Of a DNA stretch of 64,000 nucleotides, positions 12,023 to 32,531 are shown in pieces (positions within the stretch are counted from its first letter, which is position 1; each line of letters starts with the position of its first letter). A model generated the notes under the pieces. That model had not been told where the DNA came from, made no database searches, and saw only the letters and a list, made by a program, of their open reading frames with translations. The stretch is from an uncultured bacterium (GTDB taxonomy: Bacteria; CAIWAD01). The DNA lies in assembly GCA_903910645.1 (NCBI GenBank), contig CAIWAD010000124.1:16445-80444 (forward strand), given 5' to 3'. The position numbers and the translations under genes were made by a program.

Positions 12023-13180
12023 TCAGGATCTTTCCATCCACCACAAGCCCAGGCCGGCCACCGCCAACAAGAGGCCACTTGCCAGGAAAGCGCCGGGCAG
12101 ACCCACACCGTTCACCAGGGGAGCTGCCAGGAAGGGTGTGCAGAACTGTCCCAGGAAAATGGAGCTGCTCATCACCGCCACGGCGCGGGCGCGGGCGGCA
12201 TCGGGCACATGGGCGTTCAACCAGGCGGTGAAGTTGGGGCGGGCCAGCCCGAAACCCACGCTGGCCACTGCCAGACCGGCCAGGATGGGCCAGTAGCCCA
12301 GCGTGGTCCACACCAGCGCATAACCCAGTCCCACCAATCCAAAGCTTAGGGCGAACAAGGGTCCCACGGCCAGGCGTCGACGCAGGCGAGCGTACTGCAG
12401 CGACGCCAACCCGGCGAAGAGCGTGGCCCCACTGATGGCCCCCGCGATGGCGCCGGGGGAGTGGACACCCAGCTCGCCCAACAGGAAGGGCGTCTGCACC
12501 GGGGTGTAGTAGAACACCACCATGTGCACGAAAGCCATGGCTCCCATAAGCATCAGAAAGCCGCGCAGGCGCTTGCGGGTGGGGGCGTCCAGGGCTTTGG
12601 CGCGATCCACATGGCGCACCGGTTCCGGCAGCAGCAGGACCGCCGCAAAGGCAAGGGGCAAGGGCAGGAGGTAGACCCAGAAGGGACCGCGCCAGCCCAT
12701 GGCCTCCGCCAGGAAACCTCCCATCAGCTGGAAGGCCACGCCGCCAAAGGACATGAAGGCATTCTGCCAGCCCAGCACGCGGCGGCGCTCCTCGCCGTCC
12801 CAATACTCCAGAACCAGGGTGGTGGCGCTGGTCATGATGAGGCCCACAGCGAAACCCAGCAAGGCGCGGCCAACCAGGAGGCTGCTCAGGCTGCCCGCCC
12901 ACAGGCCCTGGGAACCGGCCAAGGCATAGAGCACCAAGCCTGGCAACAGCACCTTGCGCCGCCCGTGGCGATCCGCCAGCCAGCCAGCCAGCGGCGCCGC
13001 CAATGCCGTGAAAAGGCCTGGCAGGGTGAGAACCAGCTTGACCAGGGTGGGATCGCCGCCGAAGTGTCCACTCATCAAGCCCAGGCCAGGGGCAATGGTG
13101 GCGCCGGCCATGACGGTTAGACTGCTGGAGCAAAGCAGCGTGAGCAGTGCGCCGCGCCGCGTGATGGCCGGAGCCTTCAC
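12023..13180 (-). CDS. MFS transporter
   Basis: About 12 predicted TM segments. The loop GWLADRHGRRKVLL is the MFS signature between TM2 and TM3. Confidence 0.8.
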   Translation of the reverse strand: MKAPAITRRGALLTLLCSSSLTVMAGATIAPGLGLMSGHFGGDPTLVKLVLTLPGLFTALAAPLAGWLADRHGRRKVLLPGLVLYALAGSQGLWAGSLSSLLVGRALLGFAVGLIMTSATTLVLEYWDGEERRRVLGWQNAFMSFGGVAFQLMGGFLAEAMGWRGPFWVYLLPLPLAFAAVLLLPEPVRHVDRAKALDAPTRKRLRGFLMLMGAMAFVHMVVFYYTPVQTPFLLGELGVHSPGAIAGAISGATLFAGLASLQYARLRRRLAVGPLFALSFGLVGLGYALVWTTLGYWPILAGLAVASVGFGLARPNFTAWLNAHVPDAARARAVAVMSSSIFLGQFCTPFLAAPLVNGVGLPGAFLASGLLLAVAGLGLWWMERS

Positions 13181-13728
13181 TCATCCTCCACAAGGCGTCG
13201 AAGGCGACGCACATGGTGGATTTCCAGGGCCACCAGGGCCCAGAAGAGCAGCATGAGCAGCAGGAAGGCGCGGGTTTCCATTCCAGCGGGCCGCCACCAG
13301 TCCAGCCCCACCGGCAAAGCCAGCACCAGGGGCAACTGGGCCAGGATGTGCCAGAAAGCCTCGCCCGGCAGGCGCACCGGCTTCACGCCTCCCACCTGCA
13401 GGTCGCCGACCTGGCGCAGCTTGCGGGCCCAGGCGCGATTCTCCTGCAGAAGGTGCAGCCAGGCCAGGAGCAGAGCCAGCCAGGGGCTGGTGTGCAGGTT
13501 GAAGAAGCCATCCACCAGGGGATTCACTACCAGCAGGATGATGAGCAGGTACAGGCCCTTCACCCAGAACCGATGCCGCTCGCGCTCCAGTTGCTGGTTC
13601 AGGGCTTCATCCACCACGCACCATTCATGGCGATGAAGGGAGACCAGCCACGCGGCCCTGCCATCGGCGGAGCGGCCCTGCACCCCGGTAACTGCCGTGG
13701 GCAGTCCATCGAAGTGGAAAGGGGCCAC
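13177..13728 (-). CDS. Hypothetical membrane protein
   Basis: Hydrophobic segments (GLYLLIILLVVNPLV, FLLLMLLFWALVAL). ATGA overlap with the MFS gene, and the start abuts the kup stop. Confidence 0.5.
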   Translation of the reverse strand: MAPFHFDGLPTAVTGVQGRSADGRAAWLVSLHRHEWCVVDEALNQQLERERHRFWVKGLYLLIILLVVNPLVDGFFNLHTSPWLALLLAWLHLLQENRAWARKLRQVGDLQVGGVKPVRLPGEAFWHILAQLPLVLALPVGLDWWRPAGMETRAFLLLMLLFWALVALEIHHVRRLRRLVEDE

Positions 13729-15846
13729 CTAGATTTCGTCCTGCATGCCCAACTCCACCACCCGGCCCGTGGGGATGCCGAAGAAGGTGCGTGCGCTGCG
13801 CGCGTTGCGGGACAGGAAGATGTAGAGCATGCGCCGCCACTTGGTCAGGTAGGTGCGCCCGGAATCGATGAGCGTGATGTGCCCCAGGTAATAGCTCACA
13901 TGGTTGAGGTTGATGTGCAGGCCGGGCAGGTTCTTGAGGATGGCGGGCACGCTAACCCCTTCCATGTAGCCGTGGCGCACATCCACCTGGTAGAATCCCA
14001 TGCCCAGTTCCCGCACCGTGGCCTTTTCGTCGAAGGGGATGGTGGGGTGCCGCTCCACCATCACGCTCATCACGATCACCGTCTTGTGCAGGACCTTGGT
14101 GTGCTTCAGGTGGTGAAGCATGATGCGTGGCACGGTGCCGCTGTTCTGGGTCAGGAATACCGCCACCTCGCCCACCCGCGCTATGGGCGTTGAGCTTTCG
14201 GCCATTTCCGCCAGGAACTGCTCCATGGGCATCAGGCTGGCCTGCACGCGGCGGCGCAAGGCAAGGTTGCCGGATTTCCAGGTGGTCATCACGGCAAAGA
14301 GCACGGCGCCCATGGCCAGGGGGAACCAGCCGCCGTGGGCGATTTTGATGATGTTCCCGGCGGTGAAGATGAAGTCAATGGCCAGGAAGGCCCCGCAAAG
14401 GGCCAGCGCGCGCCACAGGGGCCAGTTCCAGCGGGCCAGGGCCACCGCGAAGAAGAGGCAGGTGGTGATGGTCATGGTGCCCATCACGGCGATGCCGTAG
14501 GCCGCCGCCAGATTGGTGCTGCTGCGGAAAATGATCACTGCCGCCAGACAGGCCGCCATGAGCAGGTAATTCACCACGGGCACATAGATCTGGCCACGCA
14601 TGCTGTGGGATGTGTGATGCACCTGAAGGCGGGGCATGTAGCCCAGCTGCATGGCCTGCTGGGCCAGACTGTAGCTGCCGGTGATAAGGGACTGGGAGGC
14701 GATGATGGCCGCGCTGGTGGAGATGAACAGCAGGGGCCAGGTGAACCAGCCGGGACTCAAGGCATAAAAGGGATTGGCCACGCCGGCGGGTTCCGCCAAC
14801 ACCGATGCGCACTGGCCGAAGTAGTTCAACAGCAGGCAGGGCATGACCAGCAAGGTCCACGAGAGTCGGATGGGCAGTCGTCCGAAGTGGCCCATGTCCG
14901 CGTACAGGGCCTCGCCACCTGTGATGCACAGCACCACGCTGCCCAACACCAGCACGCCGTGCCAGCCATAATGCTGGAAGAAGTGAAGGATGTGCAGGGG
15001 ATTCACCGCGCCAAGAATCTCGGGGCTCTGCAGGATTCCCCCCACTCCCAGCACGGCAATGGAGGCGAACCACACCAGCATCATGGGGCCGAAGACCGTG
15101 CCGATGCGGTCCGTGCCGTGGCGCTGCACCAGAAAGAGCGCAACCAGAATGAGGATGGAAACAGGCAACACCAGGGATTTCATGCCGGGCAGGGCCACAT
15201 CCAGGCCCTCCACCGCGCTGAGCACGGTGATGGCCGGGGTGATGACGCCATCCGACAAAAGCAGTGCCGTGCCCGCAATGGCCAAGCCGGAGATGAGAGC
15301 CACCGTGCGCGGCACATCTTTGCGGGACAGGGCGGCGCGGCGCTGGGCCCGACGACTGGCTTCCTGACTCAGTTTCTGGTACTTGGCCCGCAGGTGATCC
15401 GCTTTCTCCTTCTCACCCGCATCCAGCAGGGCTTGCACTTCGGCACTGCGGCGTTCCGCCAGCCGCTTGTCCGCGGCGCGGCGCTCCGCCTCGGCGGGAC
15501 GGCCGGCTTCCACGCGTTCCTTTTCCCGCACCTGATGGGCCGCAATGAGCTTCTGGACGCTGCCCGCGCTTAGGGCCAGGGCCAACAGGCTCATCATGCC
15601 GCCTTCACCCTCGTTGTCCGCCAGCAGGATGAAGCCCAGGTACTTCACCATCACCACAATGACCATGGACCAGAAAACCAGGCTCATGACGCCGAACACG
15701 GTGACGGCGTCCACCTGCAGGTTGTAGTGGGTGCCCAGGGACTCCTTGATGGTGTAAAGGGGCGAAGTGCCAATGTCGCCGAAGACCACGCCCACGGCCG
15801 TGAGGCAAAGTCCCAGCAGACCGCGGTTGGTGATGTGCTTGTCCAT
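13729..15846 (-). CDS. kup: KUP/HAK/KT potassium uptake protein with an Arg/Glu/Ala-rich insertion of about 85 aa
   Basis: GVVFGDIGTSPLYT, ADNEGEGG and VITPAITVLSAVEGL are Kup motifs. The protein is 705 aa, against about 620 aa for typical Kup. Confidence 0.9.
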   Translation of the reverse strand: MDKHITNRGLLGLCLTAVGVVFGDIGTSPLYTIKESLGTHYNLQVDAVTVFGVMSLVFWSMVIVVMVKYLGFILLADNEGEGGMMSLLALALSAGSVQKLIAAHQVREKERVEAGRPAEAERRAADKRLAERRSAEVQALLDAGEKEKADHLRAKYQKLSQEASRRAQRRAALSRKDVPRTVALISGLAIAGTALLLSDGVITPAITVLSAVEGLDVALPGMKSLVLPVSILILVALFLVQRHGTDRIGTVFGPMMLVWFASIAVLGVGGILQSPEILGAVNPLHILHFFQHYGWHGVLVLGSVVLCITGGEALYADMGHFGRLPIRLSWTLLVMPCLLLNYFGQCASVLAEPAGVANPFYALSPGWFTWPLLFISTSAAIIASQSLITGSYSLAQQAMQLGYMPRLQVHHTSHSMRGQIYVPVVNYLLMAACLAAVIIFRSSTNLAAAYGIAVMGTMTITTCLFFAVALARWNWPLWRALALCGAFLAIDFIFTAGNIIKIAHGGWFPLAMGAVLFAVMTTWKSGNLALRRRVQASLMPMEQFLAEMAESSTPIARVGEVAVFLTQNSGTVPRIMLHHLKHTKVLHKTVIVMSVMVERHPTIPFDEKATVRELGMGFYQVDVRHGYMEGVSVPAILKNLPGLHINLNHVSYYLGHITLIDSGRTYLTKWRRMLYIFLSRNARSARTFFGIPTGRVVELGMQDEI

Positions 15847-16005: not shown

Positions 16006-16419
16006 CTATGCAGACTTCTCCGATGACGGGAGGAAGTTCTTGTAATGTTTCTCCGCGCAGCCCGGGCAGATGCCATGGCTGAACTCCGCCTCTGAGTGCT
16101 CCTTCACATAACTCTCCACCGGACGCCAGGTACCTGCGTCGTCCCGGATCTTGTGGCACACACAGCAGATGGAAAGCAGGCCGCGCAGGGTTTTCAAACG
16201 GTGCACCAGCGTGCGCGTGAAGAACAGCACTACCAATGCGCAGCCAATGACCATGGTGGTTTCAATCAGGCCTTCCACCCAATTGACCGGCGTGGCCTGG
16301 AATCCAAAGAGCTTGTGCGGCAGGTCCAGGACCTCGTCCAGCCACATAATGGCCACTACGGCCAGAAAACCCGCGGCTTCCAGCAAGGCCATGCGTCGCA
16401 ACAGACCTGATTCCCGCAT
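16006..16419 (-). CDS. Small membrane protein with a C-terminal Cys4/His-rich module (CxxCHKIRDD...FSHGICPGC)
   Basis: I chose the ATG at 16419, preceded by a GGAGG; the 172-aa ORF-track version overlaps the upstream gene. Two TM helices are followed by SICCVCHKIRDDAGTWRPVESYVKEHSEAEFSHGICPGCAEKHY. Confidence 0.6.
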   Translation of the reverse strand: MRESGLLRRMALLEAAGFLAVVAIMWLDEVLDLPHKLFGFQATPVNWVEGLIETTMVIGCALVVLFFTRTLVHRLKTLRGLLSICCVCHKIRDDAGTWRPVESYVKEHSEAEFSHGICPGCAEKHYKNFLPSSEKSA

Positions 16420-16487
16420 GTGAACCTCCGCTGTGCCGCCCTTGAAGCCCCCTTGCGAAGGCAGGGCCTCCCAAGACGGACGCAGGA

Positions 16488-18143
16488 TCAATAAGGTGCC
16501 GAGTCGTGGGCGTGGCCGTGGCACATCAAGGTGCAGTTGCCCTGGCTCAGGGATTGGCGCTCCACTTTCAGCCGGCCATCCAGCGGCTCAATCCAGGGTC
16601 GGTCCAGGCGCAGCAGGCCAGGCTGGTCCGGCGAGCCGTGGGGATCATGGCAGGAGGCGCAGGACAGGGCTCCGCGCCCCGTGTGCAGGTTGTGCCAGCG
16701 CCATCCTTCACCGCTGCTGAAGGAGCTTTCCTGATGGCAGGTGAAGCACAGGGCGTTCTCGCGGTCTTCACCTGTGGCGAAAGGCGAGGGATTGAAAGGC
16801 GCCTTGAGCAGGTGTTCGATGTTGGATCCGTGGGGGCCCTGGGGACCGGCGGGATCGTCGCTGCCATGGCAGTCGGAGCAGGTGATTTGGTCCAGGGCGC
16901 TCCATTCCTTTTTCAGGCTGGGCACCTCCGGATTCAGGCCGGGACCCATCACCGGATGGTAGCTACGGTTGCCCAAATCAAAATCCCGCGCCACATCGCG
17001 CTGGCCGGGAAGCGTGTTGCCCGTGAAGCCGTGGCACTTGAGGCAGATTTCGTATTCGAAGTCCGCCACATCCTTTTTCATGCCCAATCGGCTGATGCCG
17101 CTGACACCCTCCATGCTCCCCGGCATGGTGCGCACGCTGGACTGGCTGGACACAGCGTGGGGATTGTGGCAATCCGTGCAGCGCACGGCGCGGTTTTCAC
17201 GCGATCCCGCCAGGAAGCCCACAAAGCCCGACCCGTCCGGCTCCACGGTGCGGGAACCCGTGTGCACGCTCACCGGGTGGGTGAAGAGCTTGTCGAACTC
17301 CGCCCGCATGTTGTTGGGCGAAGGAATTTCCCTGGGCCCATCCACGCTGGCGTCGTGGCAACGGAAACACAGACTGTTCTCCTCCGCCAGCAGGAGGCGC
17401 GGCTGGGGTGGTGATGCGTGGATGCTGTGGCACTGGGCGCAGCTCAGTTCGCGCATCTCCGCGTAGAGGGGCTCGTCCGGGTTGGCGTGCACACTGTGGG
17501 ACCAGCCCTCCAGTCGGTGGCACTCCTGGCAAATGGCCCCCTGGGCGGACTCCACCTTCAGGAACTTGCCACGCGTGTTGTCGTGGGGGTCGTGGCAAGT
17601 GCTGCAGCGGATGCGCTCCCCGCGCAGGGTCATGCCCGAGGTGGCGCTGTCCGGTTTGGCCAGCTCGTGGTTGCGCGACCAGGTGAAGAGGTGAGTGTTC
17701 ATGTGGGTGGGCGCAATCTGCGCTCGTTCACCCAGATCCGTCTCCCGGCTGATGTGTTCGGCGGGATCCGTGGGAAAGGCCCGGGCCACGCTGCCATCGT
17801 GGCAGGCCAGACACAGTTGGCTGCCCGGATCGGCGGGGAAACCAGGCTCCAGATCATCGAGATGGGCACCCAGGGGGAAGGGCCCGCGGGGCAGGCGCCG
17901 GTCCCACAGGGGAATGAGCTGGTCGTGCACGCGGGGTCCGTGGCACACGCGGCAGAGCTGGCGCTCCATGGTGGTGTCGGAGGGCATCCCGGTGTGCCAG
18001 TGGGTCAGGTTGTGGGGTGAGGCCTGCACGCGGGAGGCTTTCACCTGGTCGGGATCGCTGGCCCCTGCCAGCAGGGCAAAGGCGCCCAGGGAAAGCGCGG
18101 GAAGGACGATCAGGGCCGCCCGGCGGAGCGAGAACATCACCAC
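16488..18143 (-). CDS. Multihaem cytochrome c (11 CxxCH plus one CX3CH)
   Basis: Signal peptide MVMFSLRRAALIVLPALSLGAFALLAGA. Motifs: CRVCH, CLACH, CSTCH, CQECH, CAQCH, CFRCH, CTDCH, CLKCH, CSDCH, CFTCH, CASCH and CTLMCH. Confidence 0.9.
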   Translation of the reverse strand: MVMFSLRRAALIVLPALSLGAFALLAGASDPDQVKASRVQASPHNLTHWHTGMPSDTTMERQLCRVCHGPRVHDQLIPLWDRRLPRGPFPLGAHLDDLEPGFPADPGSQLCLACHDGSVARAFPTDPAEHISRETDLGERAQIAPTHMNTHLFTWSRNHELAKPDSATSGMTLRGERIRCSTCHDPHDNTRGKFLKVESAQGAICQECHRLEGWSHSVHANPDEPLYAEMRELSCAQCHSIHASPPQPRLLLAEENSLCFRCHDASVDGPREIPSPNNMRAEFDKLFTHPVSVHTGSRTVEPDGSGFVGFLAGSRENRAVRCTDCHNPHAVSSQSSVRTMPGSMEGVSGISRLGMKKDVADFEYEICLKCHGFTGNTLPGQRDVARDFDLGNRSYHPVMGPGLNPEVPSLKKEWSALDQITCSDCHGSDDPAGPQGPHGSNIEHLLKAPFNPSPFATGEDRENALCFTCHQESSFSSGEGWRWHNLHTGRGALSCASCHDPHGSPDQPGLLRLDRPWIEPLDGRLKVERQSLSQGNCTLMCHGHAHDSAPY

Positions 18144-19930
18144 AGTCTCCTCAGCACATGGATCCAGGCCTCCGTGTCCTTCCGTCCAAAGTGGTCGGGA
18201 TCGCCCACGAAGCGCAGGTCGGTGGTCAGGGTCAGCTTGTTCAGTTCAAACTCCACGAAGGAGCGCAGCCACATGCGCTCGGACAACTGGTCCCGGCCAG
18301 GCCGCCAGGTGCCGCGCACATTCAGCGAGGCAAGACGCAGCGGCTGCCAGCGCAGATGCATGGACAGGCGGTGTTCCAGGTCCACCAGATCCGCCGCCAC
18401 CAGGTGCTGCAATGCCATGGCGCTCAACTGGGCCTGCAAGCGATGGCCCCGGGCTTTCACCCACACTTCGTTCTTCAGCGTGTTGCGCAAAGTGTCGTCG
18501 CTGTAGACCAAATGGCTGCCCACATGGCGGCGCCACTCCAGACGATGTCCGCCCTGCAGGGTGCCATGGGGATTCAGTGTGCTGTTGAAGCTGGTCAACT
18601 GATCCAGCTCCTTCTGGGAAGGATCGGCCCAGGGGGCCACTGTTTCCCGGTCTTGCATGCGGAAGAGCTCCGCTCGCTGCAGGGCGCGCATGCTGAAGCC
18701 CAGCCAGGGCAGGGGCTCCACCGGCGCGATCATCTCCACCGTGGCCCGTCCCACCAGCCCGCGGCCATATTCGCGCGTCTCCGCCCAGCCGCCGCCCAGG
18801 TCGCCGCGCAGGGACAGATTGCGCTTCAACCACAGGGAGCGATCCATGAACCGGGACCAGGACTGGTGTTGGCCCGCGGCCTCCACCGCCGCCGCCATAC
18901 GCGCCAGGGGCTTCACCTGGAAGACCGCCAGGGCCAGCACATCCCGCCTGTGGACAAGATCCTCGTCCGTGATGCGCACGCGCTCGGTGGAGGCGCGCAG
19001 TTCGGCGCCCACTTCCTCCAAGGGCATCCAGCGCCAGGAGGCGTCGGCGTGACGGCGCAGCACATCCCGCTCCTCCAGCTCGGTGAAATCCGCGCCGGCA
19101 TTGATGGACAGGCGATGCTTCCCCCACAAGGTGGTGCGCAGGCGGTTCTGCCCCAGCACGCGGCGCACGCCCTTGCGCTGCACCAAAGCCGAGTTGCTGT
19201 GGACATCCACGCCACCAGGCAGCTCACCCGCCATGCTCAAGCCCGCAAGGCTGCGCTGAAGATCGAAGTCAAGGCTGTCCGCCAGGCCATACCAGGAGCT
19301 CTCGCCCCAGGCACGCGCCACGAACTGGTGCCAGGCGGGCACGCGGTGCTCCACCTCGGCCCGCATGAATCGATGGTCCGAGATGGCCTCGCCATTGAGC
19401 ACGCGACGGTTGCCCGCCACCACTCCCAGCTCGGTGGTGGGCATGGGACGCAGGGCCAGGCGCCCGCCCACGATCAGGTCGCGCAGGCGCAGGCTGTCGA
19501 TGAGGAAGGCATTGGGACGCCGCCAGCCGTGACGGGCGAAGAGTCCCAGTTCCACTCCGCCCAGGGGCGTCCAACCCAGGTCCGCCTGGAACTCGGGCGT
19601 GTAGATGCGCTGCTCGTAAAGACTGTTCTGTGCCATGGTGGCGCCGGTGCGCAGCAGCCAGTCCAGGCCGCCGGCCTTTTGCACCTGGCCATGGGCACCC
19701 ACCACCACCCGCGCCGTGTGCAGGCGCAGGTCCTCCCCGTAGGCCCCGGCGTAGCTGGAATCACTGACCCAGGTGCTGGTGTGGTCAATCCAGCCGTCCA
19801 GGGTGAAGGATCGCGACGGCTGATAGGCGGGCGCCTGCACCCATGTCGGAACCTGGAACGCGCCCAGCGCCGAACCGACAAGGGAAAGGGCGAAGAGCAA
19901 GGCGCAACGCATGTGGCGGGATCCTCTCAT
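18137..19930 (-). CDS. Predicted outer-membrane beta-barrel (porin-like) protein
   Basis: I chose the ATG at 19930, which forms an ATGA overlap with the upstream stop. Signal peptide MRGSRHMRCALLFALSLVGSALGA. The body is rich in alternating aromatic/polar segments. The C-terminus ...WIHVLRRLW ends in an aromatic residue. Confidence 0.55.
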   Translation of the reverse strand: MRGSRHMRCALLFALSLVGSALGAFQVPTWVQAPAYQPSRSFTLDGWIDHTSTWVSDSSYAGAYGEDLRLHTARVVVGAHGQVQKAGGLDWLLRTGATMAQNSLYEQRIYTPEFQADLGWTPLGGVELGLFARHGWRRPNAFLIDSLRLRDLIVGGRLALRPMPTTELGVVAGNRRVLNGEAISDHRFMRAEVEHRVPAWHQFVARAWGESSWYGLADSLDFDLQRSLAGLSMAGELPGGVDVHSNSALVQRKGVRRVLGQNRLRTTLWGKHRLSINAGADFTELEERDVLRRHADASWRWMPLEEVGAELRASTERVRITDEDLVHRRDVLALAVFQVKPLARMAAAVEAAGQHQSWSRFMDRSLWLKRNLSLRGDLGGGWAETREYGRGLVGRATVEMIAPVEPLPWLGFSMRALQRAELFRMQDRETVAPWADPSQKELDQLTSFNSTLNPHGTLQGGHRLEWRRHVGSHLVYSDDTLRNTLKNEVWVKARGHRLQAQLSAMALQHLVAADLVDLEHRLSMHLRWQPLRLASLNVRGTWRPGRDQLSERMWLRSFVEFELNKLTLTTDLRFVGDPDHFGRKDTEAWIHVLRRLW

Positions 19931-20955
19931 GGCGCCACCTCCCCGGCCGGAAGTTCCGCCGACAGGTAGGGCAGATAGCGATAGGCCTGCACGCGCCGGT
20001 TGTACTGATCCACGATGTAGAGGTGGTCCCCGTGGAAGCAGAGCGCGCTGGGCAGCAGGAACTGGTCGCCCGCCCTGCCCGTGCCGCCGAACCAGTACAA
20101 AAGGGCGCCGCTGCGGCTGAAGACCTGGATGCGGCTGAAGGCGGCATCGCTCACATAAAGATTGCCGTCGCCATCGAAGGCCAGTCCCTTGGGAAACATG
20201 AAACCGCCCGGCGAGTGGTCGTAGACTCCGAAGGAGAACAGGAAGTCGCCCTGGGCGTTGAAGCACTGCACGCGATGGTTCAGGGCGTCCAGCACCCACA
20301 GTTGACCGTCGGGATCGCTGGCCACCGCCACGGGATGCAGGAACTGGCCCTGCGCGCCGCCTTCTCCACCCAGGGTGCGCTGCCAGCGGCCCTGGCCGTC
20401 GAAGCTCTCCACCACATGGCGGCCCGCATCCACGATGTGCAGCAGCGAGCCATCCCAGTGCATCTGTCCCGGCCTCTTCCATCCCTTGGGCGAAGACAGT
20501 TCGCCCTTCACATTGCCGGATCCGGACTCCAACAGGAAGACCTTGCCCCGGCCCGCGTCGCTCATGGCGATGCCGGCGGGAAAGGCGGCCACGCCCGTGG
20601 GCGTGGCGAACAAGGGCGAGGCCATCACTTCGAACGGTCGGGGCGAGCAGCCCTCGGGGCTAAGTCGCAGAAGGCGGGACAAATCGCCGTCGCACACCAG
20701 CACGCGGCCATCTGCATCCACATCCACATCGGTGGGGCGTCCCACGCTGGCGGTGGCGCAGCTGCCCGTCACCAGGCGCAGGGCCTTCATGCCCAGGCCT
20801 CCGTCCAGTCGCACCTGGGAAAGGACATCCCCCTCCTGCAGGTAGAGCGTGTCCGTGCCGGCGGCCACCAGGGGTCGCGGCCCCTGATGCGTCACCGTGG
20901 CGCATCCCGCCGCCAGGAGCAGGGAAAGGAAAAGGACAGGCAGGCGTCGCCTCAT
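19927..20955 (-). CDS. NHL-repeat beta-propeller lipoprotein
   Basis: I chose the ATG at 20955 (ATGA overlap). Lipobox MRRRLPVLFLSLLLAAGC. NHL repeats: GQFLHPVAVASDPDGQLWVLDALNHRVQCF, FMFPKGLAFDGDGNLYVSDAAFSRIQVF and FLLPSALCFHGDHLYIVDQYNRRVQAY. Confidence 0.85.
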   Translation of the reverse strand: MRRRLPVLFLSLLLAAGCATVTHQGPRPLVAAGTDTLYLQEGDVLSQVRLDGGLGMKALRLVTGSCATASVGRPTDVDVDADGRVLVCDGDLSRLLRLSPEGCSPRPFEVMASPLFATPTGVAAFPAGIAMSDAGRGKVFLLESGSGNVKGELSSPKGWKRPGQMHWDGSLLHIVDAGRHVVESFDGQGRWQRTLGGEGGAQGQFLHPVAVASDPDGQLWVLDALNHRVQCFNAQGDFLFSFGVYDHSPGGFMFPKGLAFDGDGNLYVSDAAFSRIQVFSRSGALLYWFGGTGRAGDQFLLPSALCFHGDHLYIVDQYNRRVQAYRYLPYLSAELPAGEVAP

Positions 20956-23165
20956 GGCAGCACCCGCTTCTCGCTTGAGTGGTAATAGCGGTACTTCCAC
21001 AGGGCCTTGTCTCCATGGCAATCGGCGCAGACGGCCTCGCTTGTCTCCTGGCGCAGGAAGTCCGGCGAATGTTCGCCGCCTCCCTCGGGGTGGGCCACAT
21101 GGGGGTTGTGGCAACTGGTGCAGTCCACGCGTCCAATGGCGCCGTCCGTGCGGCCCTCGGCATCGAAGAGCGGCATGGTGCGTCCGTCGGGTCGCGTCTG
21201 GCCCGCAAGGGTCATGTACTTCTGCGGATGGCCCCACGCCTCGGGTACATGGCTGCTGGCGCCCTGCTCGCGGTGGCAGGAGAGGCAGTGCCGGGCGCCC
21301 GGACTCCAGTTCTCCGCCTTGCGCTCCAGGCTTCCATCCGGCCGCACGGCGGCCACGCTGTCCATCTGGGCATTGTCCAGGCTGCTGGCGATGATGGCCC
21401 AATCCGACACGGCGCGGTGGGTGGTGTGGCAGGCCCGGCAGGCGCTCTCGTTGGGCCTGGTCTCGCTCAAGTCGTGGGCGCTTCCCAATACACGGGTCTC
21501 GCCGGAGTGGCAGGCGGAACAGAGTTGCGCGCCGGAGTTGGCCATGCGCAGGAAGGAGCTGTTGTCGTCGCCCTTGGCGTTGGCCTGCCAGGTGGGCGGT
21601 CCGGCGGGATTCCAGTGATGTGGCTCGTGGCAGGACTCGCAGCCCACCAGCAGATCGGCCGGTTCGGGTGTGCCGTCCGCAGGTCTCCAGGTGCGCAGGT
21701 TCTCTGCGCGGTAACCCGGCAGCTTGCTGCCCTTGGGCATGGCCCTGCCCACCGGATGGCCGTGCTGGCCCAGGGTGGTGGCCCCGTGCTTGCCGGTGCC
21801 CTCGTGGCAGCTCAGGCACAGGCTGGTGAACTCGGATGCTTCCGTCCGGGCATGGCCATCGCCAAATGCCTGCTGCTTGTGCGTGTTGTGGCAGGAAGTG
21901 CATTGGCCCCGGCTGGGCTCGCTCCAGTTGAAGGAGTTGTGGTCGGAGACCAGGGTTTGGGCCTGCTCGTTGTGGCAGTTGATGCACAGTCGGCCGTTTT
22001 CGTCATCGGGCAGGCGCAGGAAGCTGCCCAGGGCATCCCCATCCTCATTGCCCGGGCCCGGCTTGTGCCCTGGCATGGCGCTCCAGCGGTGGGGGTCGTG
22101 GCAGGTGGTGCAGCTCATGCCGCCCTCACGCAGGGGAAGGCGCACATTCTGCTCCTTCACCGGACGGTCCAGGGGATGGCCGTGCCCCACCCAGCTGATG
22201 GCGCCCGCCGCGCCCTTTTCCTGGTGGCAACTAAGGCAACGGGCGTCCACGCCATCCTTCACCACATCCGCGCCACGCCCGCCGGGCAGGGGCCAGGCCC
22301 ACATGGCCGGACCATTGCCGCCATGGGTCACATGGCAGGATGCGCAGGCGTCGCTTTGCCCGGCCGTGCGCCTCGTGTTGCCAATAGGCAGATTCCCGTG
22401 TTCTTCCTTCAGGTGGTGGTCGCTTTGCAGCACGGCGAAACTGGGCTCGTGGCAGCTGCGGCACAATTGGGTGCGGTCGGCGCCATCCACCAGCTTGGCC
22501 CGCTTGTCGCTGTGCATGTTGTGGCAACTAAGGCATTCCACCGTGCCTGTGGACACATGGCGTCCGGCCAGCTCCTGTGGCAGTGCCTGCTCCAGCTTGG
22601 CATGCAGGGGATGGTCTGTGTTGCGACGGGCGTGGTCCGCGTGGCACTTCAGGCACAAGGCGGAATTGTCCGCTTCCGCGCGCAAGAAGGGCACATACTG
22701 GAACTCGCGCTCCATGCGGTTCATGTGGGGCGTGTGGCAGCTGCCGCAGTAGATGTCCCCCTTGCGATCCAGGGGAAGGCCGCTGGCGGACACCGCCGCG
22801 CCATTGCTGGGCTTGTGGAAATGCGGATCGTCCTTCTGGAAGAAGCGCCGGCTGTCCCCCACATAACCGTCGTGGCAGGACCAGCACATGTCGCGGCTGG
22901 CCACGCGGGCTTCGCGGCCGTCGATCATCACAGGATGATCCACCGGCGGCAGCAGGACGGCCATCTTCTCATAGCCTTCACCCCACTCCACATGGCAGAT
23001 CACGCACTCCTTGGAGCGGTCCATGTGCAACTGGGCGTCCGCGCGACCGGCTGGGCCCAATCCAAGGGCAAGCCACAGGCCCGCGACTCCGCAGGCCAAG
23101 GTGGCGCGAAGCAGGCGGGCTTTCAGTCTCCGGGAGTCAAGATCCATGGGCGAAAATCCATTCAT
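20952..23165 (-). CDS. Multihaem cytochrome c (18 CxxCH)
   Basis: I chose the ATG at 23165 (MNGFSPMDLDSRRLKARLLRATLACGVAGLWLALGLGPAGRADA). I counted 18 CxxCH motifs from CVICH to CADCH. Confidence 0.9.
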   Translation of the reverse strand: MNGFSPMDLDSRRLKARLLRATLACGVAGLWLALGLGPAGRADAQLHMDRSKECVICHVEWGEGYEKMAVLLPPVDHPVMIDGREARVASRDMCWSCHDGYVGDSRRFFQKDDPHFHKPSNGAAVSASGLPLDRKGDIYCGSCHTPHMNRMEREFQYVPFLRAEADNSALCLKCHADHARRNTDHPLHAKLEQALPQELAGRHVSTGTVECLSCHNMHSDKRAKLVDGADRTQLCRSCHEPSFAVLQSDHHLKEEHGNLPIGNTRRTAGQSDACASCHVTHGGNGPAMWAWPLPGGRGADVVKDGVDARCLSCHQEKGAAGAISWVGHGHPLDRPVKEQNVRLPLREGGMSCTTCHDPHRWSAMPGHKPGPGNEDGDALGSFLRLPDDENGRLCINCHNEQAQTLVSDHNSFNWSEPSRGQCTSCHNTHKQQAFGDGHARTEASEFTSLCLSCHEGTGKHGATTLGQHGHPVGRAMPKGSKLPGYRAENLRTWRPADGTPEPADLLVGCESCHEPHHWNPAGPPTWQANAKGDDNSSFLRMANSGAQLCSACHSGETRVLGSAHDLSETRPNESACRACHTTHRAVSDWAIIASSLDNAQMDSVAAVRPDGSLERKAENWSPGARHCLSCHREQGASSHVPEAWGHPQKYMTLAGQTRPDGRTMPLFDAEGRTDGAIGRVDCTSCHNPHVAHPEGGGEHSPDFLRQETSEAVCADCHGDKALWKYRYYHSSEKRVLP

Positions 23166-23188
23166 GGGGCCCTCCGGCGCGGGCTGTG

Positions 23189-24133
23189 TCAGGGAATGTC
23201 GAAGCGGATGATGCGGCTGGCGCGGCTGTCCACCACCCACCACGAAGCTCCGCAACACACAATGGCCGTGGGACCCTGGAGTTGCCAGGGCTTGCCCTTC
23301 AGCATCAACTGGCCCTGGCTCTGGGCGTACTCGTCATAGGCGTGCACCATGCCCAGGTAGCTGTCGGTGATGAGCAGGCCCTTGCCGTTCCAGCAGGCGC
23401 AGGCGCCCTTGGGACGATAGAGACGCTCGCCATCGGTGCCAAAAGAGCCCACCATGCGGTCAAAGTTCCCCAAGCGCGTGTAGGCCTGGATGCGGCCGCC
23501 CAGCACATCAATCACCATGAAGCCGTTCATGTGGCGGGACAGGATGCCCGGAAACTTGAACTCCTCCACGCGATCGCCCGGCTTGCCGTCGGGCAGGCTC
23601 ATGCCCGCCATGCGACGCATGGGGCGGATCTCGTCGGCGCCCCGGCCAATCACTTTCAACAGGGCGCCGTCGTAGCTGATCATCAGCAGGCGATGGTTGT
23701 CGTTGTCGGAGACCACCAGCTTGTCCTCCAGCGCCAGCACATCCACCGGATCGCAATTGGCCGGAAGCTTGATGGTCTGCACGGGACGCCCGTCCAGGGT
23801 GGTGACGAAAATGGAGCCGGCATCCGGATCGCTCACATAAAGGCGGTCCTTCCAGATATCGTTGCCCACCGGGTTCACAAAACCATCGTGGCGGATTTCA
23901 CGCATCAGGGCGCCCTGGGGGCTGATGACCACCACGCGCTTGTTCAGGCCGTCCACCACATAGGCGTTGCCGCGCTCGTCGGCCGCCAGGTCCGTGGGAT
24001 AAGTGGTGCCGGCGGCCACATCCTCCAGAATGCGCACATCCACCGCGCCGGCCACGCCGGCCAGCATCAGAAGCAGGATCGGGAGGAGCAGGGCTCTCCG
24101 ATCAGTACGCGGGCGGCAGGAAGAAGACTTCAT
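23189..24133 (-). CDS. NHL-repeat beta-propeller protein, secreted
   Basis: Signal peptide ...RRALLLPILLLMLAGVAGA. Repeats: PTDLAADERGNAYVVDGLNKRVVVI, NPVGNDIWKDRLYVSDPDAGSIFV and VLALEDKLVVSDNDNHRLLMI. Confidence 0.8.
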   Translation of the reverse strand: MKSSSCRPRTDRRALLLPILLLMLAGVAGAVDVRILEDVAAGTTYPTDLAADERGNAYVVDGLNKRVVVISPQGALMREIRHDGFVNPVGNDIWKDRLYVSDPDAGSIFVTTLDGRPVQTIKLPANCDPVDVLALEDKLVVSDNDNHRLLMISYDGALLKVIGRGADEIRPMRRMAGMSLPDGKPGDRVEEFKFPGILSRHMNGFMVIDVLGGRIQAYTRLGNFDRMVGSFGTDGERLYRPKGACACWNGKGLLITDSYLGMVHAYDEYAQSQGQLMLKGKPWQLQGPTAIVCCGASWWVVDSRASRIIRFDIP

Positions 24134-26681
24134 TGTCGGTCACACTCGCGGTTATGGCGCTGCTGCGCAGTTGGCGAATCCGCTCCTCGTCGAAGCCCAC
24201 GCCGTGGAAGTCCACCAGCCCACCCTCGGGCACATGGCATTCTCCACAGGTGGCGCCCGTGCCTTCGCCGGACTGGATGCGATCGTGGAAGCGGTCCTTG
24301 GTGTCCTTCATGCGTGCCTGGGTCATGGGCGCGGAATTCTGCCGGTACTCCTCGGCACGAGGGCTGTCCAGATCGGCATAAAGCGGCTTTCCGCCCACCT
24401 TCAAGCCCAGCAGGCTGGTGTAATTGTCCAGCCCGGTGAAGGGCGGTGTGCCGGTCAACTTATAGGGAGCCTTGGGCTCGCCCTGGGGCTGGCGGCGGAG
24501 ATCCAGCCAGCTCCACTCCGCGCCCTTGCGGTCGGCCTCCTTGGCGTGGCAGGTCTCGCAGGTCATGAAGCGGCTGTGCAGGTTCAAGTAGGCCCGCGTC
24601 TTGCGGTCGTTCTGGTGCGGCAACATGGCGTGGCAGAGCAGGCACTCGCTTTGGCGCAGGGTGGAATCCGCCGTCACCACCGGCTCGGCATCGTGGAAGC
24701 GTCTGTGGCGCCAATCCACATCCTCGTTGGCGACACGCAAGGGATAACTGGGATCCGCCAGCGCCGCCTCCTTGTCCGCCAGCGGGCGCTTGCACCACTG
24801 GGCCACCACATCGGCGGCGGCCGGAGCCTTGTCCACTCCCAGGTAGAGGCGGAAGGACCACACCATGGCGGCGCAGGTGACAATGGTGAGAAACAGAAAG
24901 GACCATCCCAGGGTGCGGGCCAGGGTGTCGCGCGTGCTGCGGCGACGCTCCCGGGCCCCGGTGACCTCGTTCACCAGGATGGGGCCGAACTTCTCCACGG
25001 CATCCGGCTCCATGAGCGCGCCGTGCTCCTCCTCCATGTCCTCTTCGCCCATTTTGCCGTCAATCCACACCTCGCTCATGGGCCAGCGGCTGGGCTTCCA
25101 GTGCACGTTCCAGAAATGCCACACCACGATGGCCGCCACGGCAAGGATGGCCTCCAGCGAATGCACCAGGCGGGCCAGGTCCACGATGAACTTGCTGCCC
25201 AGGTGCTCCATCCACAGGATGATGCCCGTTCCTGTCATCACCACGGAGCCCCAGGCGAAGGCCCAGTACTCCATTTTCTCGCCATAGTTGAAGAAGCCGA
25301 AGGCCGGGCGATCCTTCCGCAGGCCCAACATGAAGCTGATGTTGTGGCTGATGAGCTTCATGTCCGATGGGCCGGGGAGCATGGCCCACATCAGGGCCCT
25401 GCCGCGCTTGCTGAACACCGCATAGCCCAGGTGGTAGAAACTCACCAGCGTGAGCAGGATGGCCGCCACGCGATGGCTCCAGTCACGCACGGGCATGAAG
25501 TATTCCCACCGCACAAGGGTGCCGAAGCGCTCCGGCGGAATCCACAGCATGACGCCTGTCAGAGCCAGCAGGGTGAAGCTGGTGAACATGACCACATGAC
25601 TGATGCGCTCCGCTGGGCTCAGGCGGCGGAAGACACGACGCACGGCGCCTTCGGGCTTTTGGTGGTGGGCCGCTGCGTGCGCCTTTCGATGGCGACGCCA
25701 GGCGATGTAGTCCAGCAGATTGTGGCCCAGCATGCCGCCAATGGTGAGCAGGATGATCCAGATGTAAATGCGCTTCACCCACACCAGGGCCTGCACCTTG
25801 GTGCCCTGGTAAAGGTTGTGCATGCTGCCGGCGGTGGCGAAAGACACCGTGGCGCCATCGTGGCAACCGGTTGTGCTGCAGGTTTTCTGCAGGTTCGCCG
25901 GGTTGATCATGGACTTGGAATCCTGATGGCTCAGGATGTTGTGGTGGCCATGGCAGTCGGCGCACACGGGGCTGCGCTTGTCCCCGAAGTTGAAGCCGCG
26001 GCCATGGAAGGACTCCAGGAAGCTGGAGACCATGGTGCCATCGATGAGCAAGGTTTCAAGGCTGTCGGACACCAGCTCGTTGTCCGTGTGGCAGCGGATG
26101 CAGGCCTCGAAGTTCTGCTGATGCCTCCAGTACTCGTCCTCGCTGATGTGCAGGGCCAGGTGCTTGAAGTCCTCGTCCAGGGCGTTGTAGTTCTCGTGGC
26201 AGGTGAGGCACTTGGCCTTGGCGCGCTCCATGTCCTCCGGAAGCTTCTGCCAGTAGACGCTGTTGAAGTGGCAGTCCTTGCACACCGGCTTGCGGTGGTC
26301 GTAGGGGCCCTTCCCCGTCTTGCCATGCACGCTGGCCGCCAGGTCCCTGGCCATTTTCTGATGGGAGTAATCGGCGCCGGTGTAGGGATCGATTACATGG
26401 CAGGCCACGCTGCAGTCCACCTTTTTCACCGGCGCGCGGTGGGGCACCTGATCGATGTCCGTGTGGCACTGGCGGCAGGCGAAGCGGCCATGGATGCTGC
26501 TTTTATGGACGCCTTCGTCGATGGTGAAATTGCGCACGCCCGCGCTGTCGCTGACGGCCATCCAGGGCTTGCCATGGCAGAAGAGGCAATTCTCGGGATC
26601 GAAGGTGCTGTCCTGGGCCACGGCCAGTGTGGCCAGCAGCAGTCCCGCCAGGGCAAGGATCTTCCGCAGGGGATCCATCAT
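24102..26681 (-). CDS. Fused inner-membrane redox protein: N-terminal multihaem c domain, FdnI/PhsC-like cytochrome b domain, TM segment and C-terminal trihaem c domain
   Basis: I chose the ATG at 26681 (MMDPLRKILALAGLLLATLAVA; ATGA overlap). N-domain: CLFCH, CRQCH, CSVACH, CKDCH, CLTCH, CIRCH, CADCH, CSTTGCH. b-domain: RISHVVMFTSFTLLALTG...WSHRVAAILL...EYWAFAWGSVVMTGTG...HSLEAILAVAAIVVWHFWNVH. C-domain: CLLCH, CETCH, CGECH. Confidence 0.85.
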   Translation of the reverse strand: MMDPLRKILALAGLLLATLAVAQDSTFDPENCLFCHGKPWMAVSDSAGVRNFTIDEGVHKSSIHGRFACRQCHTDIDQVPHRAPVKKVDCSVACHVIDPYTGADYSHQKMARDLAASVHGKTGKGPYDHRKPVCKDCHFNSVYWQKLPEDMERAKAKCLTCHENYNALDEDFKHLALHISEDEYWRHQQNFEACIRCHTDNELVSDSLETLLIDGTMVSSFLESFHGRGFNFGDKRSPVCADCHGHHNILSHQDSKSMINPANLQKTCSTTGCHDGATVSFATAGSMHNLYQGTKVQALVWVKRIYIWIILLTIGGMLGHNLLDYIAWRRHRKAHAAAHHQKPEGAVRRVFRRLSPAERISHVVMFTSFTLLALTGVMLWIPPERFGTLVRWEYFMPVRDWSHRVAAILLTLVSFYHLGYAVFSKRGRALMWAMLPGPSDMKLISHNISFMLGLRKDRPAFGFFNYGEKMEYWAFAWGSVVMTGTGIILWMEHLGSKFIVDLARLVHSLEAILAVAAIVVWHFWNVHWKPSRWPMSEVWIDGKMGEEDMEEEHGALMEPDAVEKFGPILVNEVTGARERRRSTRDTLARTLGWSFLFLTIVTCAAMVWSFRLYLGVDKAPAAADVVAQWCKRPLADKEAALADPSYPLRVANEDVDWRHRRFHDAEPVVTADSTLRQSECLLCHAMLPHQNDRKTRAYLNLHSRFMTCETCHAKEADRKGAEWSWLDLRRQPQGEPKAPYKLTGTPPFTGLDNYTSLLGLKVGGKPLYADLDSPRAEEYRQNSAPMTQARMKDTKDRFHDRIQSGEGTGATCGECHVPEGGLVDFHGVGFDEERIRQLRSSAITASVTDNEVFFLPPAY

Positions 26682-27481
26682 TCCTCCAGCATGGGGAAGT
26701 GGAAGGGTTCGTAATTCTCCACCATGCCCACGGCGGCGGAGTGCGTCAATTCGTGGATGCGCGGTTGGCTGAAGCCCAGCGCGACCCATGGGAAAGCGGC
26801 TTCCGGCGTGTGGCAGGCCAGGCAGGCGCTGGGCGTTTTGCCCACATGCTCCTCGGCGAACTCGCGGAACTGGGCCTCGTCGATCTCCAGCCCGCTCAGC
26901 GCGTCGGCGCGGAACTGCTTGTAGCGCTGGTCATCGTAGGGCGTGAACAGCAGGGTGTTGCCGCCTGCCGCCGTGAGCACAGGGACGATGCGGCTGATGA
27001 AGTTGTGCCGCCCGGACAGGACGCCATCCTTCCCCCGCTCAAGTCCATAGGGGCCCAGGGCCGTGACCGTGTTGTCCGTGTCGAAGGAGGTCCACTCCAG
27101 CGAGGTGCGCGCGCGCATGGTGTCGTCCAGATGGCAGGCCAGACAGCTCATGAAATGGCTGTGCTGGTTGTAGAAGGCACGGCGCTTGGGATCCTTGGTG
27201 TGCGGGAAAAGCGGGTGGCATGTCAGGCAGGCCTCCTGCTGGCCCAGGGGCAGCAGGCTGTGCACCTCGATGTTGTGGAAGTGCTGCTCCTGGTTGCGGT
27301 AGTCCTCGAACCAGGTCTCCAGCTGCTCCACATGGTCCGTGAAGTGGCGCCTTCCCTGCTTTTCCTCCTCGTGGGCCTTGTGGGGACGGTTGGTCATCCA
27401 CACCAGCCAGGCGGACACAGCGCTGCCGATGACCAGGGCCGTAAGGCCGTAGGCCACCCGGCTGAAGGTTCTCATGCTCAT
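26678..27481 (-). CDS. Membrane-anchored trihaem cytochrome c, homologous to the C-terminal domain of the 24102-26681 product
   Basis: N-terminal TM segment VAYGLTALVIGSAVSAWLVW. Motifs CLTCHPLFPHTKD, CLACHLDD and CLACHTPE align with CLLCHAMLPHQND, CETCHAKE and CGECHVPE. Confidence 0.85.
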   Translation of the reverse strand: MSMRTFSRVAYGLTALVIGSAVSAWLVWMTNRPHKAHEEEKQGRRHFTDHVEQLETWFEDYRNQEQHFHNIEVHSLLPLGQQEACLTCHPLFPHTKDPKRRAFYNQHSHFMSCLACHLDDTMRARTSLEWTSFDTDNTVTALGPYGLERGKDGVLSGRHNFISRIVPVLTAAGGNTLLFTPYDDQRYKQFRADALSGLEIDEAQFREFAEEHVGKTPSACLACHTPEAAFPWVALGFSQPRIHELTHSAAVGMVENYEPFHFPMLEE

Positions 27482-28263
27482 GCGTCACCATCCCGGCCGG
27501 CGGCGCCGTCCTGCTTGTCGTCGTCGTCGTGGCGTCGCACACGGCCACGCTTCAACTGCTCAAGGATGTCCTCCAGCTCGCGGGGATGCTCGTGCATCAT
27601 CTCCTCTTCGCTAAGGGTGCCGCGGTACCACACCTTGTTGGCGGGCCACACGCGGGGATTGAAGTGCACGTTGTAGAAGTGCCAGATGACAATGGCCAGG
27701 AAGGCCAGCAGGGCCTCGTCACTGTGGGCCACATAGGCGATCTGGATGACCTCTGAGGGGAACCACTGGCCGCTGGCCTCCGGATACCACAGCAACAGGC
27801 CGCTGCCCGCCATGATGAACATGCCCCAGAACACCGCCCAGTAGTCGAATTTTTCGATGTAGGAGAAGCGGTGGAAGCGGGGACGCTCCTCACTCAGGAA
27901 AAGGAAGTAGCGGATGTTCGTGGCAATGTCCCGGGCATCCTGCAGGTTCGGCAGCAGATGCATGCCGGAAAGGGGCGTGCGGTTGCGCACGATGTTGAAG
28001 AACACATAGAACACATGGACGGCGAAATCGGCGATCATCACCACCGCGGCCACGCGATGAATGGTGCGCACCGTGTCGATGCCCCCGAAAAGGTTGATGG
28101 AGTGCGACCAGAAGGCGGTGTCCGGGAACTTGATGGGGAAGCCCGTCACCACCAGGACAATGAATGGCACAAACATGAAGATGTGCTGCAGGCGCTGGCT
28201 GAGCGAGAAACGCACATACTCCCGCCTTCCCCCCACCACGCGAATGCGATCACTCACTCTCAT
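27478..28263 (-). CDS. Cytochrome b subunit (FdnI / Ni-Fe hydrogenase b-type / PhsC-like)
   Basis: I chose the ATG at 28263 (MRVSDRIRVV...). RLQHIFMFVPFIVLVVTG, TIHRVAAVVMIADFAVHVFYV, DYWAVFWGMFIMAGSG and HSDEALLAFLAIVIWHFYNVHFNP. The ATGA overlap is with the downstream gene. Confidence 0.85.
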   Translation of the reverse strand: MRVSDRIRVVGGRREYVRFSLSQRLQHIFMFVPFIVLVVTGFPIKFPDTAFWSHSINLFGGIDTVRTIHRVAAVVMIADFAVHVFYVFFNIVRNRTPLSGMHLLPNLQDARDIATNIRYFLFLSEERPRFHRFSYIEKFDYWAVFWGMFIMAGSGLLLWYPEASGQWFPSEVIQIAYVAHSDEALLAFLAIVIWHFYNVHFNPRVWPANKVWYRGTLSEEEMMHEHPRELEDILEQLKRGRVRRHDDDDKQDGAAGRDGDA

Positions 28264-30215: not shown

Positions 30216-30222
30216 CACGCCA

Positions 30223-31410: not shown

Positions 31411-31471
31411 GGCCGATCCTTTCCGGAAATGAATCCGGGCCGCCCGAGGGCGGCCCGGACACGAGGTGGAC

Positions 31472-32431: not shown

Positions 32432-32531
32432 GCGAACTCCTGTGTTTTGGAAAGTTGGGTCCATTGACCCATTGGTGACGCGCCCGTGGCCGCCGACCCT
32501 CCCAAGCCCGCGGCCCGACCCGTTTCAACCA

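Follow-up and report, generated by a model that had tools for sequence, protein, structure and literature searches.

A 137-residue membrane protein joining a two-helix sensor to a widespread Cys4 module: a candidate minimal signal transducer

Introduction

The modular framework of bacterial signalling is known, and the closest described counterpart of the Cys4 module analysed here is HalOD2, a short C-terminal domain of unknown function that follows REC, carries two conserved CXXC motifs and is a predicted zinc finger; it is limited to a few halobacteria, its CXXC motifs lie 20–25 residues apart and its N-terminal part is HalX-like (Galperin et al., 2018; PMC5847659). Our subject is a 137-residue protein encoded on the minus strand, at positions 16006–16419, of a 64,000-nucleotide stretch of contig CAIWAD010000124.1 (assembly GCA_903910645.1) from an uncultured bacterium; this whole stretch is called the window below. 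The protein consists of a two-helix transmembrane (TM) hairpin followed by a four-cysteine (Cys4) module. Compared by description only, HalOD2 and the Cys4 module are both C-terminal with two CXXC motifs, but the two Cys pairs of the module are separated by 29 residues.

Other described proteins share single elements with it. The DksA/TraR C4 zinc-finger proteins also place a four-Cys finger after a long helical hairpin, but the hairpin of the window protein is transmembrane and hydrophobic, and no zf-dskA_traR Pfam match is found. Rubredoxin has a CxxC...CPxC knuckle pair, and its first-to-last Cys span, hand-counted in a Clostridium pasteurianum sequence, is 37 residues, as in the module; unlike rubredoxin, the module model has an α-helix between the knuckles. 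Homology to rubredoxin was ruled out: hhalign against that sequence gave a probability of 2% with just seven residues around CPxC aligned, and Pfam Rubredoxin (PF00301) has no match in the window protein. A ZAS-type anti-sigma factor was also rejected, as the protein has H-x2-C-x2-C at its C-terminal end, not HxxxCxxC in an N-terminal anti-sigma domain, and no zf-HC2 match; the interval between the neighbouring cytochrome and kup genes is also free of sigma-factor genes.

Neither a Cys4 output domain nor the two-TM sensor has a model or a description in the resources that we searched. The evidence leans towards the window protein being a minimal inner-membrane signal transducer whose Cys4 domain, probably a zinc domain, would be a coiled-coil-driven output acting on a partner. 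At 137 residues it is the simplest form in which module plus sensor can be studied.

Results and discussion

The Cys4 module

Three features make up the C-terminal part of the protein, in window coordinates:

16168..16197, minus strand: junction LKTLRGLLSI, residues 75–84, (I/V)KTLRGxxPI in all module proteins; L78 is invariant and G80 nearly invariant across architectures.
16057..16167, minus strand: Cys4 core, residues 85–121, with the C85-x2-C88 knuckle, β-hairpin KIRDDAGTW, helix VESYVKEH, loop SEAEFSHG and C118-P-G-C121; from conservation and AlphaFold2.
16009..16056, minus strand: C-terminal tail AEKHYKNFLPSSEKSA, with Y126 conserved and a variable end; from orthologue conservation.

A whole-protein search returned 16 full-length orthologues of 40–80% identity, among which C85, C88, C118, C121, H115 and W98 are invariant, and more than 100 proteins that share just the last ∼ 55 residues. 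The latter are mostly response-regulator receivers of ∼ 200 amino acids, plus PAS, GAF and DUF4118 proteins; REC predominates among the matches. Searched exhaustively against 1.84 billion cluster representatives, a profile covering 56 positions of the module (A3) matched 25,415 of them at E ≤ 1e-3 and 20,178 at E ≤ 1e-10. In the window the same profile, applied with hmmsearch to the six-frame open reading frames (ORFs), has a sole match, the Cys4 gene (E = 4e-31). Matches with a named source come mostly from anaerobic or microaerophilic lineages; a plasmid collection gave a single weak, unannotated match.

The family consensus is KTLRG-x4-CxxC[KR][KR][IV]R...W...E.Y...[ST]HGxCPxC. Mean column identity over these 56 positions, taken across widely differing architectures, is 69%; C, C, E, H, C and C are invariant and R, W, Y, F and S nearly invariant. 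A first-to-last Cys span of 37 residues is shared by 125 of 132 proteins and is also the value of the window protein. AlphaFold2 models the isolated module with a predicted local distance difference test score (pLDDT) of 90, as a CxxC knuckle, a β-hairpin (KIRDDxGxW), a helix (VExYIxxH), the loop SEAEFSHG and a second helix with CPxC at its N-terminus. Four divergent relatives keep all four Cys and have lost the His of SHG, which points to the four Cys as the likely metal ligands and to another role for the His. Most likely the four Cys hold one Zn ion.

No relative of the module was found in Pfam (2025 copy) or NCBIfam (2026), where six isolated modules at E ≤ 10 retrieved single-knuckle noise alone, or in a sequence search of the PDB. 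Foldseek with the module model gave nothing significant (E ≥ 3.2), and the best hit of a fold search with the full model, DksA, was not significant either (E = 4.7, TM-score 0.24). In the full-text literature, searched with motif strings among other queries, the module is undescribed and only the analogous HalOD2 was found; descriptions outside the searched library are possible. As judged by profiles and alignments, these searches confirm the Cys4 module as a real, very common and undescribed family, and its size makes that status notable. An earlier, sequence-only reading of the window had placed the module at the C-termini of many sensor-type proteins in Desulfuromonadia, Desulfovibrionia and spirochaetes, with no established function. 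The profile matches and partner domains agree with the C-terminal position in sensor-type proteins, the module is seen in Desulfobacterota, and family models, solved structures and papers on it were absent from the resources searched. The orthologues and the profile matches place its conservation well beyond the source genome.

The two-helix sensor

The N-terminal half of the protein is divided as follows:

16339..16392, minus strand: TM1, residues about 10–27, with E14 and F18 conserved and W26 at the outer interface; from hydropathy, the AlphaFold2 helix 3–31 and conservation.
16282..16338, minus strand: short acidic outer loop, residues 28–46, DEVLDLPHKLFGFQATPVN, the core of the sensor motif WLDExLDLPH...TPxN; from conservation, a net charge of about −3 and its occurrence in histidine kinases.
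16216..16281, minus strand: TM2, residues 47–68, with E49 and E53 invariant in the outer half and the helix running on to about residue 75; from conservation, AlphaFold2 and hydropathy.

Hydropathy gives two hydrophobic segments, residues about 10–27 and 50–68, and AlphaFold2 predicts a helical hairpin of residues 3–31 and 47–75 (pLDDT 86–96). The mean net charges of 17 orthologues are +2.8 for the N-terminus, −2.9 for the loop and +2.6 for the stretch that follows TM2, and the sign pattern (positive N-terminus, positive stretch after TM2) holds in all 17. By the positive-inside rule, these charges indicate an N-in/C-in protein with a cytoplasmic Cys module, the side on which the sequence-only reading had also placed it. 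Homologous modules come after cytoplasmic REC, PAS and GAF domains, which supports the same assignment.

The motif C86-V-C88-H89 at the first knuckle was considered as a haem site and ruled out, since most orthologues have A or S in place of C86 and K or R in place of H89, and since the motif lies on the cytoplasmic side. The earlier view that haem attachment at CVCH is unlikely is thus upheld; by its lack of conservation, the motif is a product of chance. The protein is not a c-type cytochrome: it has no conserved CxxCH, and the positive-inside rule assigns residues 69–137 to the cytoplasm in 17 of 17 orthologues.

The sensor motif reads WLDExLDLPHxxxGxxxTPxNWxExxxE, with W26, E29, D32, P34, G39, T43, N46, E49 and E53 invariant and D28 nearly so (≥ 90%). 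A loop of 18–19 residues and the adjoining helix ends thus present an acidic cluster and one His (D28, E29, D32, H35, E49 and E53) on the outer face. The profile of the two-TM sensor (A2) matches the window protein with E = 4e-37. A scan for this sensor in one genome per species (185,579 species genomes) gave a subfamily of 107 genomic matches in many phyla and orders, including Desulfobulbales (with Candidatus Electronema), Gemmatimonadales, Verrucomicrobiota, Planctomycetota and Acidobacteriota. From these loci 79 ORFs were recovered. Sixty-nine match a regular expression for the four Cys and the His (CxxC...HxxCxxC), and four further ORFs are the relatives that keep the Cys and lack the His; another four are histidine kinases, and of the remaining two one runs off its contig end and one has no recognizable module. 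Used as a single-sequence query, the N-terminal region retrieves three near-identical proteins, few because of the word index; as an alignment query it retrieves 14, each bearing a Cys4 variant. Of 92 members with both two-TM sensor and Cys4 module, 89 have a distance of 57 residues between DExxDLP and the first Cys, and this fixed spacing suggests that the input and Cys4 modules are rigidly coupled.

The four histidine kinases carry the same N-terminal hairpin with the motif WLDExLDLPH...TPxNWxExxxE; F18, W26, L27, D28, E29, D32, P34, T43, N46, E49 and E53 are invariant in them, and the downstream domain begins at an equal distance past TM2. What differs is that domain: HisKA and HATPase_c in the kinases, the Cys4 module in the window protein, which has no Pfam HisKA or HATPase_c match and is not a histidine kinase. 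Three of the kinases are minimal (305–328 amino acids), with HisKA beginning at the position of the Cys4 module. In these (L048:8209-9138, L052:80-997 and L085:3336-4322) the hairpin, which lacks a Pfam model, is the sole sensor; it also stands at the head of a 914-residue PAS/GAF kinase of the HWE type (L067:9953-12697). Since it heads kinases as well, the hairpin qualifies as a separate, hitherto undescribed module for sensing at the membrane, and by sequence it appears to be a sensor shared with some minimal histidine kinases.

A degenerate H-box was considered for the Cys4 module, as MAFFT aligned the His of SHG with the kinase His and EIKTL resembles ELRTPL. It was ruled out by hhalign, which gave a probability of 0.2% against the dimerization and histidine-phosphotransfer (DHp) domain of the sister kinases.

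The module as a probable output domain

The module is always C-terminal, and the last Cys is followed by a median of 15 residues (16 in the window protein), the exceptions being proteins with a second copy downstream. In eight proteins (P0141, P0142, P0143, P0144, P0146, P0150, P0155 and P0159) a complete Cys4 module occurs twice, at an internal position and at the C-terminus; these proteins resemble head-to-tail fusions, or adjacent genes merged in gene calling.

Among 143 high-scoring representatives the Pfam partners of the module are PAS (51), MASE6 (22), GAF (12) and REC (8), and also HAMP, Cache, PocR, MASE1 and Reg_prop; the 25 most frequent partner families contain no HisKA, HATPase_c, GGDEF, EAL or DNA-binding (HTH) domain. 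To judge from these assignments, all partner domains are input or transmission domains. Five such REC/PAS/GAF proteins were compared directly with the window protein (P0021, P0033, P0038, P0107 and P0120 from Zavarzinella formosa). Their C-terminal 56 residues are homologous to it, with 48–65% identity in the best local alignments (34–38% in longer alignments of P0033 and P0120), and both the KTLRG junction and the Cys span of 37 residues recur in them. These proteins are soluble or carry membrane sensors of other kinds, whereas the much smaller subfamily of the window protein uses the two-TM hairpin.

The linkers that lead into the module come in steps of seven. In 50 of 57 proteins the KP motif of REC and the first Cys are 42, 49, 56 or 77 residues apart, and in 64 of 66 the DITxRK motif of PAS lies 21, 28, 35 or 42 residues before that Cys. 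Heptad-stepped signalling helices are established for histidine kinases and diguanylate cyclases, and quantized linkers of this kind suggest a continuous dimeric signalling helix that drives the domain downstream of it. Together with the domain partners, they argue for an output rather than a sensing role of the module.

The opposite assignment, in which the module is itself the sensor and supplies a redox or metal input to the domain before it, either as a redox switch of the thiol/Zn type or as an Fe(Cys)4 site resembling that of rubredoxin, while the output comes from the preceding domain or coiled coil, has several features in its favour. The module has both CxxC and CPxC, and in the model the second pair sits at a helix N-terminus, like redox-active CPxC sites; its Cys span equals that hand-counted in the rubredoxin sequence, and the bias of the named sources towards anaerobic or microaerophilic life would suit a redox sensor. 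However, the 2% hhalign probability speaks against a rubredoxin relationship, and redox sensitivity leaves the conserved W, E, Y and SHG surface unexplained. Every partner is already an input domain or transmitter, so the proteins would be without an output, and the heptad-quantized linkers are a hallmark of a helix driving a downstream domain. We therefore regard a sensing module as unlikely.

A proposed mechanism

If the Cys4 domain is the output, the protein would work as follows. The N-in/C-in hairpin with its acidic outer loop would be the input, and the cytoplasmic Cys4 domain of ∼ 45–55 residues, reached from TM2 through the fixed-length helical LKTLRG junction (LKTLRG at residues 75–80), the output. 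In other proteins the Cys4 domain occupies the place expected for a kinase transmitter or effector, at the C-terminal end of a heptad-quantized coiled coil that comes after REC, PAS, GAF or HAMP domains. The cue may be a cation, pH or a membrane-borne signal; it would act at the outer face and shift TM2, and cation and pH are suggested by the acidic cluster. The shift would rearrange the two Cys4 domains of a putative dimer, and this would alter their docking to a cytoplasmic partner that we infer to be encoded elsewhere.

Genes for two-component proteins (hybrid kinases, REC proteins, sigma-54 activators and PAS proteins) are the sole recurrent class of neighbours, present at 27 of the 79 loci and, for the module family at large, at 19 of 73 metagenomic loci. 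Their density around the two-TM loci is 1.0 per 10 kb at 0–4 kb and 0.61 per 10 kb at 6–10 kb. Clustering of the neighbours of the 79 genomic and 73 metagenomic loci revealed generic two-component proteins and clade-specific sets, and no specific partner gene.

Several points weigh against an output acting on a partner. The enrichment of two-component neighbours is modest, ∼ 1.6-fold, and its control is biased, as the query set was drawn from the near zone. In the clade of the window, the Cys4 gene stays within one or two genes of the cytochrome cluster and of kup, so that a local functional tie is conceivable. Partner binding is a default reading for a module with a net acidic charge and no recognizable relative whose function is known.

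The same neighbours could also be read differently, with the module as a structural cap or dimerization knot and the proteins as kinase-less decoys that heterodimerize with histidine kinases through the sensor or coiled coil. Two-component genes are the commonest neighbours, and the two-TM hairpin and the PAS/GAF arrays are identical in kind to those of kinases. But a mean column identity of 69% with an invariant E and H that are not ligands is a constraint far above the need of a cap, and the matches include candidate proteins of 75–95 residues with little beyond one helix and the module. Decoys are accordingly quite improbable, and we retain the Cys4 domain as a probable signal output.

On a larger scale the module may be an undescribed major class of signal output, with more than 25,000 protein clusters, that a coiled coil drives and that replaces a kinase transmitter or response-regulator effector, acting by a mechanism unlike those of known outputs; the window protein, with sensor hairpin and output in 137 residues, would then be the smallest complete example that is bound to the membrane. 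We put this forward tentatively, as a possibility rather than an expectation. Candidate mechanisms for such a class would be the signal-controlled docking of a zinc-knuckle pair onto a conserved machine, or a metal- or redox-gated switch. Were the Cys4 domain an output, bacterial signalling would have a further branch, numbering tens of thousands of proteins with REC, PAS or GAF domains, that census tools count as output-less or hypothetical; it would extend over Desulfobacterota, Planctomycetota, Gemmatimonadota, Verrucomicrobiota and other phyla.

The gene and its neighbours

The gene and its ribosome-binding site are located as follows:

16006..16419, minus strand: whole gene, 137 codons plus stop, encoding the two-TM Cys4 signalling protein; from the identical protein P0001 and orthologues P0002–P0017.
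16425..16429, minus strand: GGAGG ribosome-binding site, 5 nucleotides 5′ of the ATG; read directly from the sequence.

The gene runs from an ATG at 16417–16419 to a stop at 16006–16008, and its product of 137 amino acids includes exactly SICCVCHKIRDDAGTWRPVESYVKEHSEAEFSHGICPGCAEKHY. The longest mechanical ORF, with its GTG start at 16524, overlaps the upstream cytochrome gene; the ATG was taken as the start because the identical 137-residue P0001 and the orthologues P0002–P0004 begin there. The upstream gene (16488–18143) is co-directional and encodes 551 amino acids with 11 CxxCH motifs and Pfam multihaem matches; 68 nucleotides separate its stop from the start of the Cys4 gene. This spacing, the separate GGAGG and a 137-residue product with two TM helices and a Cys module had all been read from the letters of the window; translation, hydropathy and AlphaFold2 bear the product out. 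Downstream, 160–164 nucleotides lead to kup, and no unusual structure was seen in this spacer (z = −0.4).

The cytochrome gene belongs to an island at 16488–33860 (minus strand) of seven ORFs with 11, 18, 9, 3, 6, 8 and 8 CxxCH motifs, the Cys4 gene standing at its end. The multihaem ORFs are interleaved with NHL-repeat ORFs and an ORF of ∼ 596 residues (18137 to about 19930) without a significant Pfam match, which may encode an outer-membrane barrel. The island resembles porin-cytochrome electron conduits. A cytochrome block corresponding to that of the window, with 61–77% identity, is carried by locus L010.

Gene order in the clade varies. The window has cytochrome, Cys4 gene and kup; L010, whose sensor part is 61% identical to that of the window, has cytochrome, Cys4 gene, orf183 and kup. 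On the contig of P0010 the order is cytochrome, DNA-alkylation-repair gene, Cys4 gene, a gene for 175 amino acids and kup, and on that of P0006 it is cytochrome, DNA-alkylation-repair gene, kup and Cys4 gene, the last 58 nucleotides downstream of kup.

The sequence-only reading had taken the place beside the cytochromes as a pointer to possible redox or metal sensing, or to a small regulatory partner: a Cys/His knuckle on the cytoplasmic face would inform or control the multihaem conduit next to it. The setting in the window invites this: the Cys4 gene is co-directional with an 11-haem gene and closely follows it at the end of a seven-ORF island, the adjacency is repeated in L010, and a cytochrome cluster is near in the contigs of P0010 and P0006. 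However, a DNA-alkylation-repair gene intervenes in P0010, and kup in addition in P0006. An ORF with at least three CxxCH motifs lies within 5 kb at just five of the 79 related loci, one of which is L010, a close relative with matching gene order, and tblastn with the cytochromes, the barrel, the NHL proteins and Kup of the window found homologues in L010 alone among the loci. The orthologues P0012, P0015 and P0016 have unrelated gene contexts, and the 113 immediate neighbours are heterogeneous, with 123 Pfam families and no redox family in the top 25. A comparison of neighbourhoods with multihaem clusters had been named beforehand as the check on a redox role; the conduit proposal fails it, as the link is lost outside the clade. 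A role of the Cys4 gene as a component of the neighbouring multihaem system is therefore not supported; a sensor reporting to the conduit is very improbable, and the adjacency appears to be an accident of lineage. More generally, function assigned from adjacency to a conspicuous cluster is unreliable, as the cytochrome tie is lost beyond the immediate clade.

The other neighbour, kup, raises the possibility that the acidic loop senses K+ or another cation and that the cytoplasmic domain gates or regulates Kup. The loop is indeed strongly acidic, and in four of four clade genomes (window, P0006, P0010 and L010) the Cys4 gene either adjoins kup or is separated from it by a single gene, in varying order. 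But none of the other 78 genomic loci has a Kup homologue within 10 kb, K_trans is absent from the frequent neighbour families, and in a narrow clade inherited gene order explains the pattern. Regulation of Kup is the least probable of the explanations considered.

Further observations on related loci and on kup

In Gemmatimonadales loci (for example L032, L047, L049, L051, L066 and L076) there is a divergent subfamily in which CAWCRRVRAGDEW...TTHGIC replaces KIRDD...FSHGIC. This subfamily adjoins a GH57 amylase/4-α-glucanotransferase gene in 5–8 loci, probably by clade-inherited gene order.

A second module gene is found near the two-TM Cys4 gene at five loci. It is directly adjacent in L013:10422-11072(−), L014:10422-10892(−) and L027:436-1014(+), and about 1–4 kb away in L034:3165-3713(+) and L074:11376-11972(+). 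Extra module copies amount to about 4 per Mb of sampled DNA, which suggests many module paralogues per genome.

An ORF of 175–183 residues accompanies the Cys4 gene and kup in the clade (window 13177–13728, minus strand; L001:10473-11000; L010:10467-10979). It follows kup in the window and lies between the Cys4 gene and kup in L001 and L010; in L001 it has no recorded Pfam match.

Kup of the window contains a highly charged insertion of ∼ 78 residues, rich in Arg, Glu, Lys and Ala, at about 15310–15540 (minus strand; Kup residues about 103–179). The insertion is absent from the 77%-identical orthologue in L001, is spanned as a gap by Pfam K_trans and gives a weak match to DUF5667.
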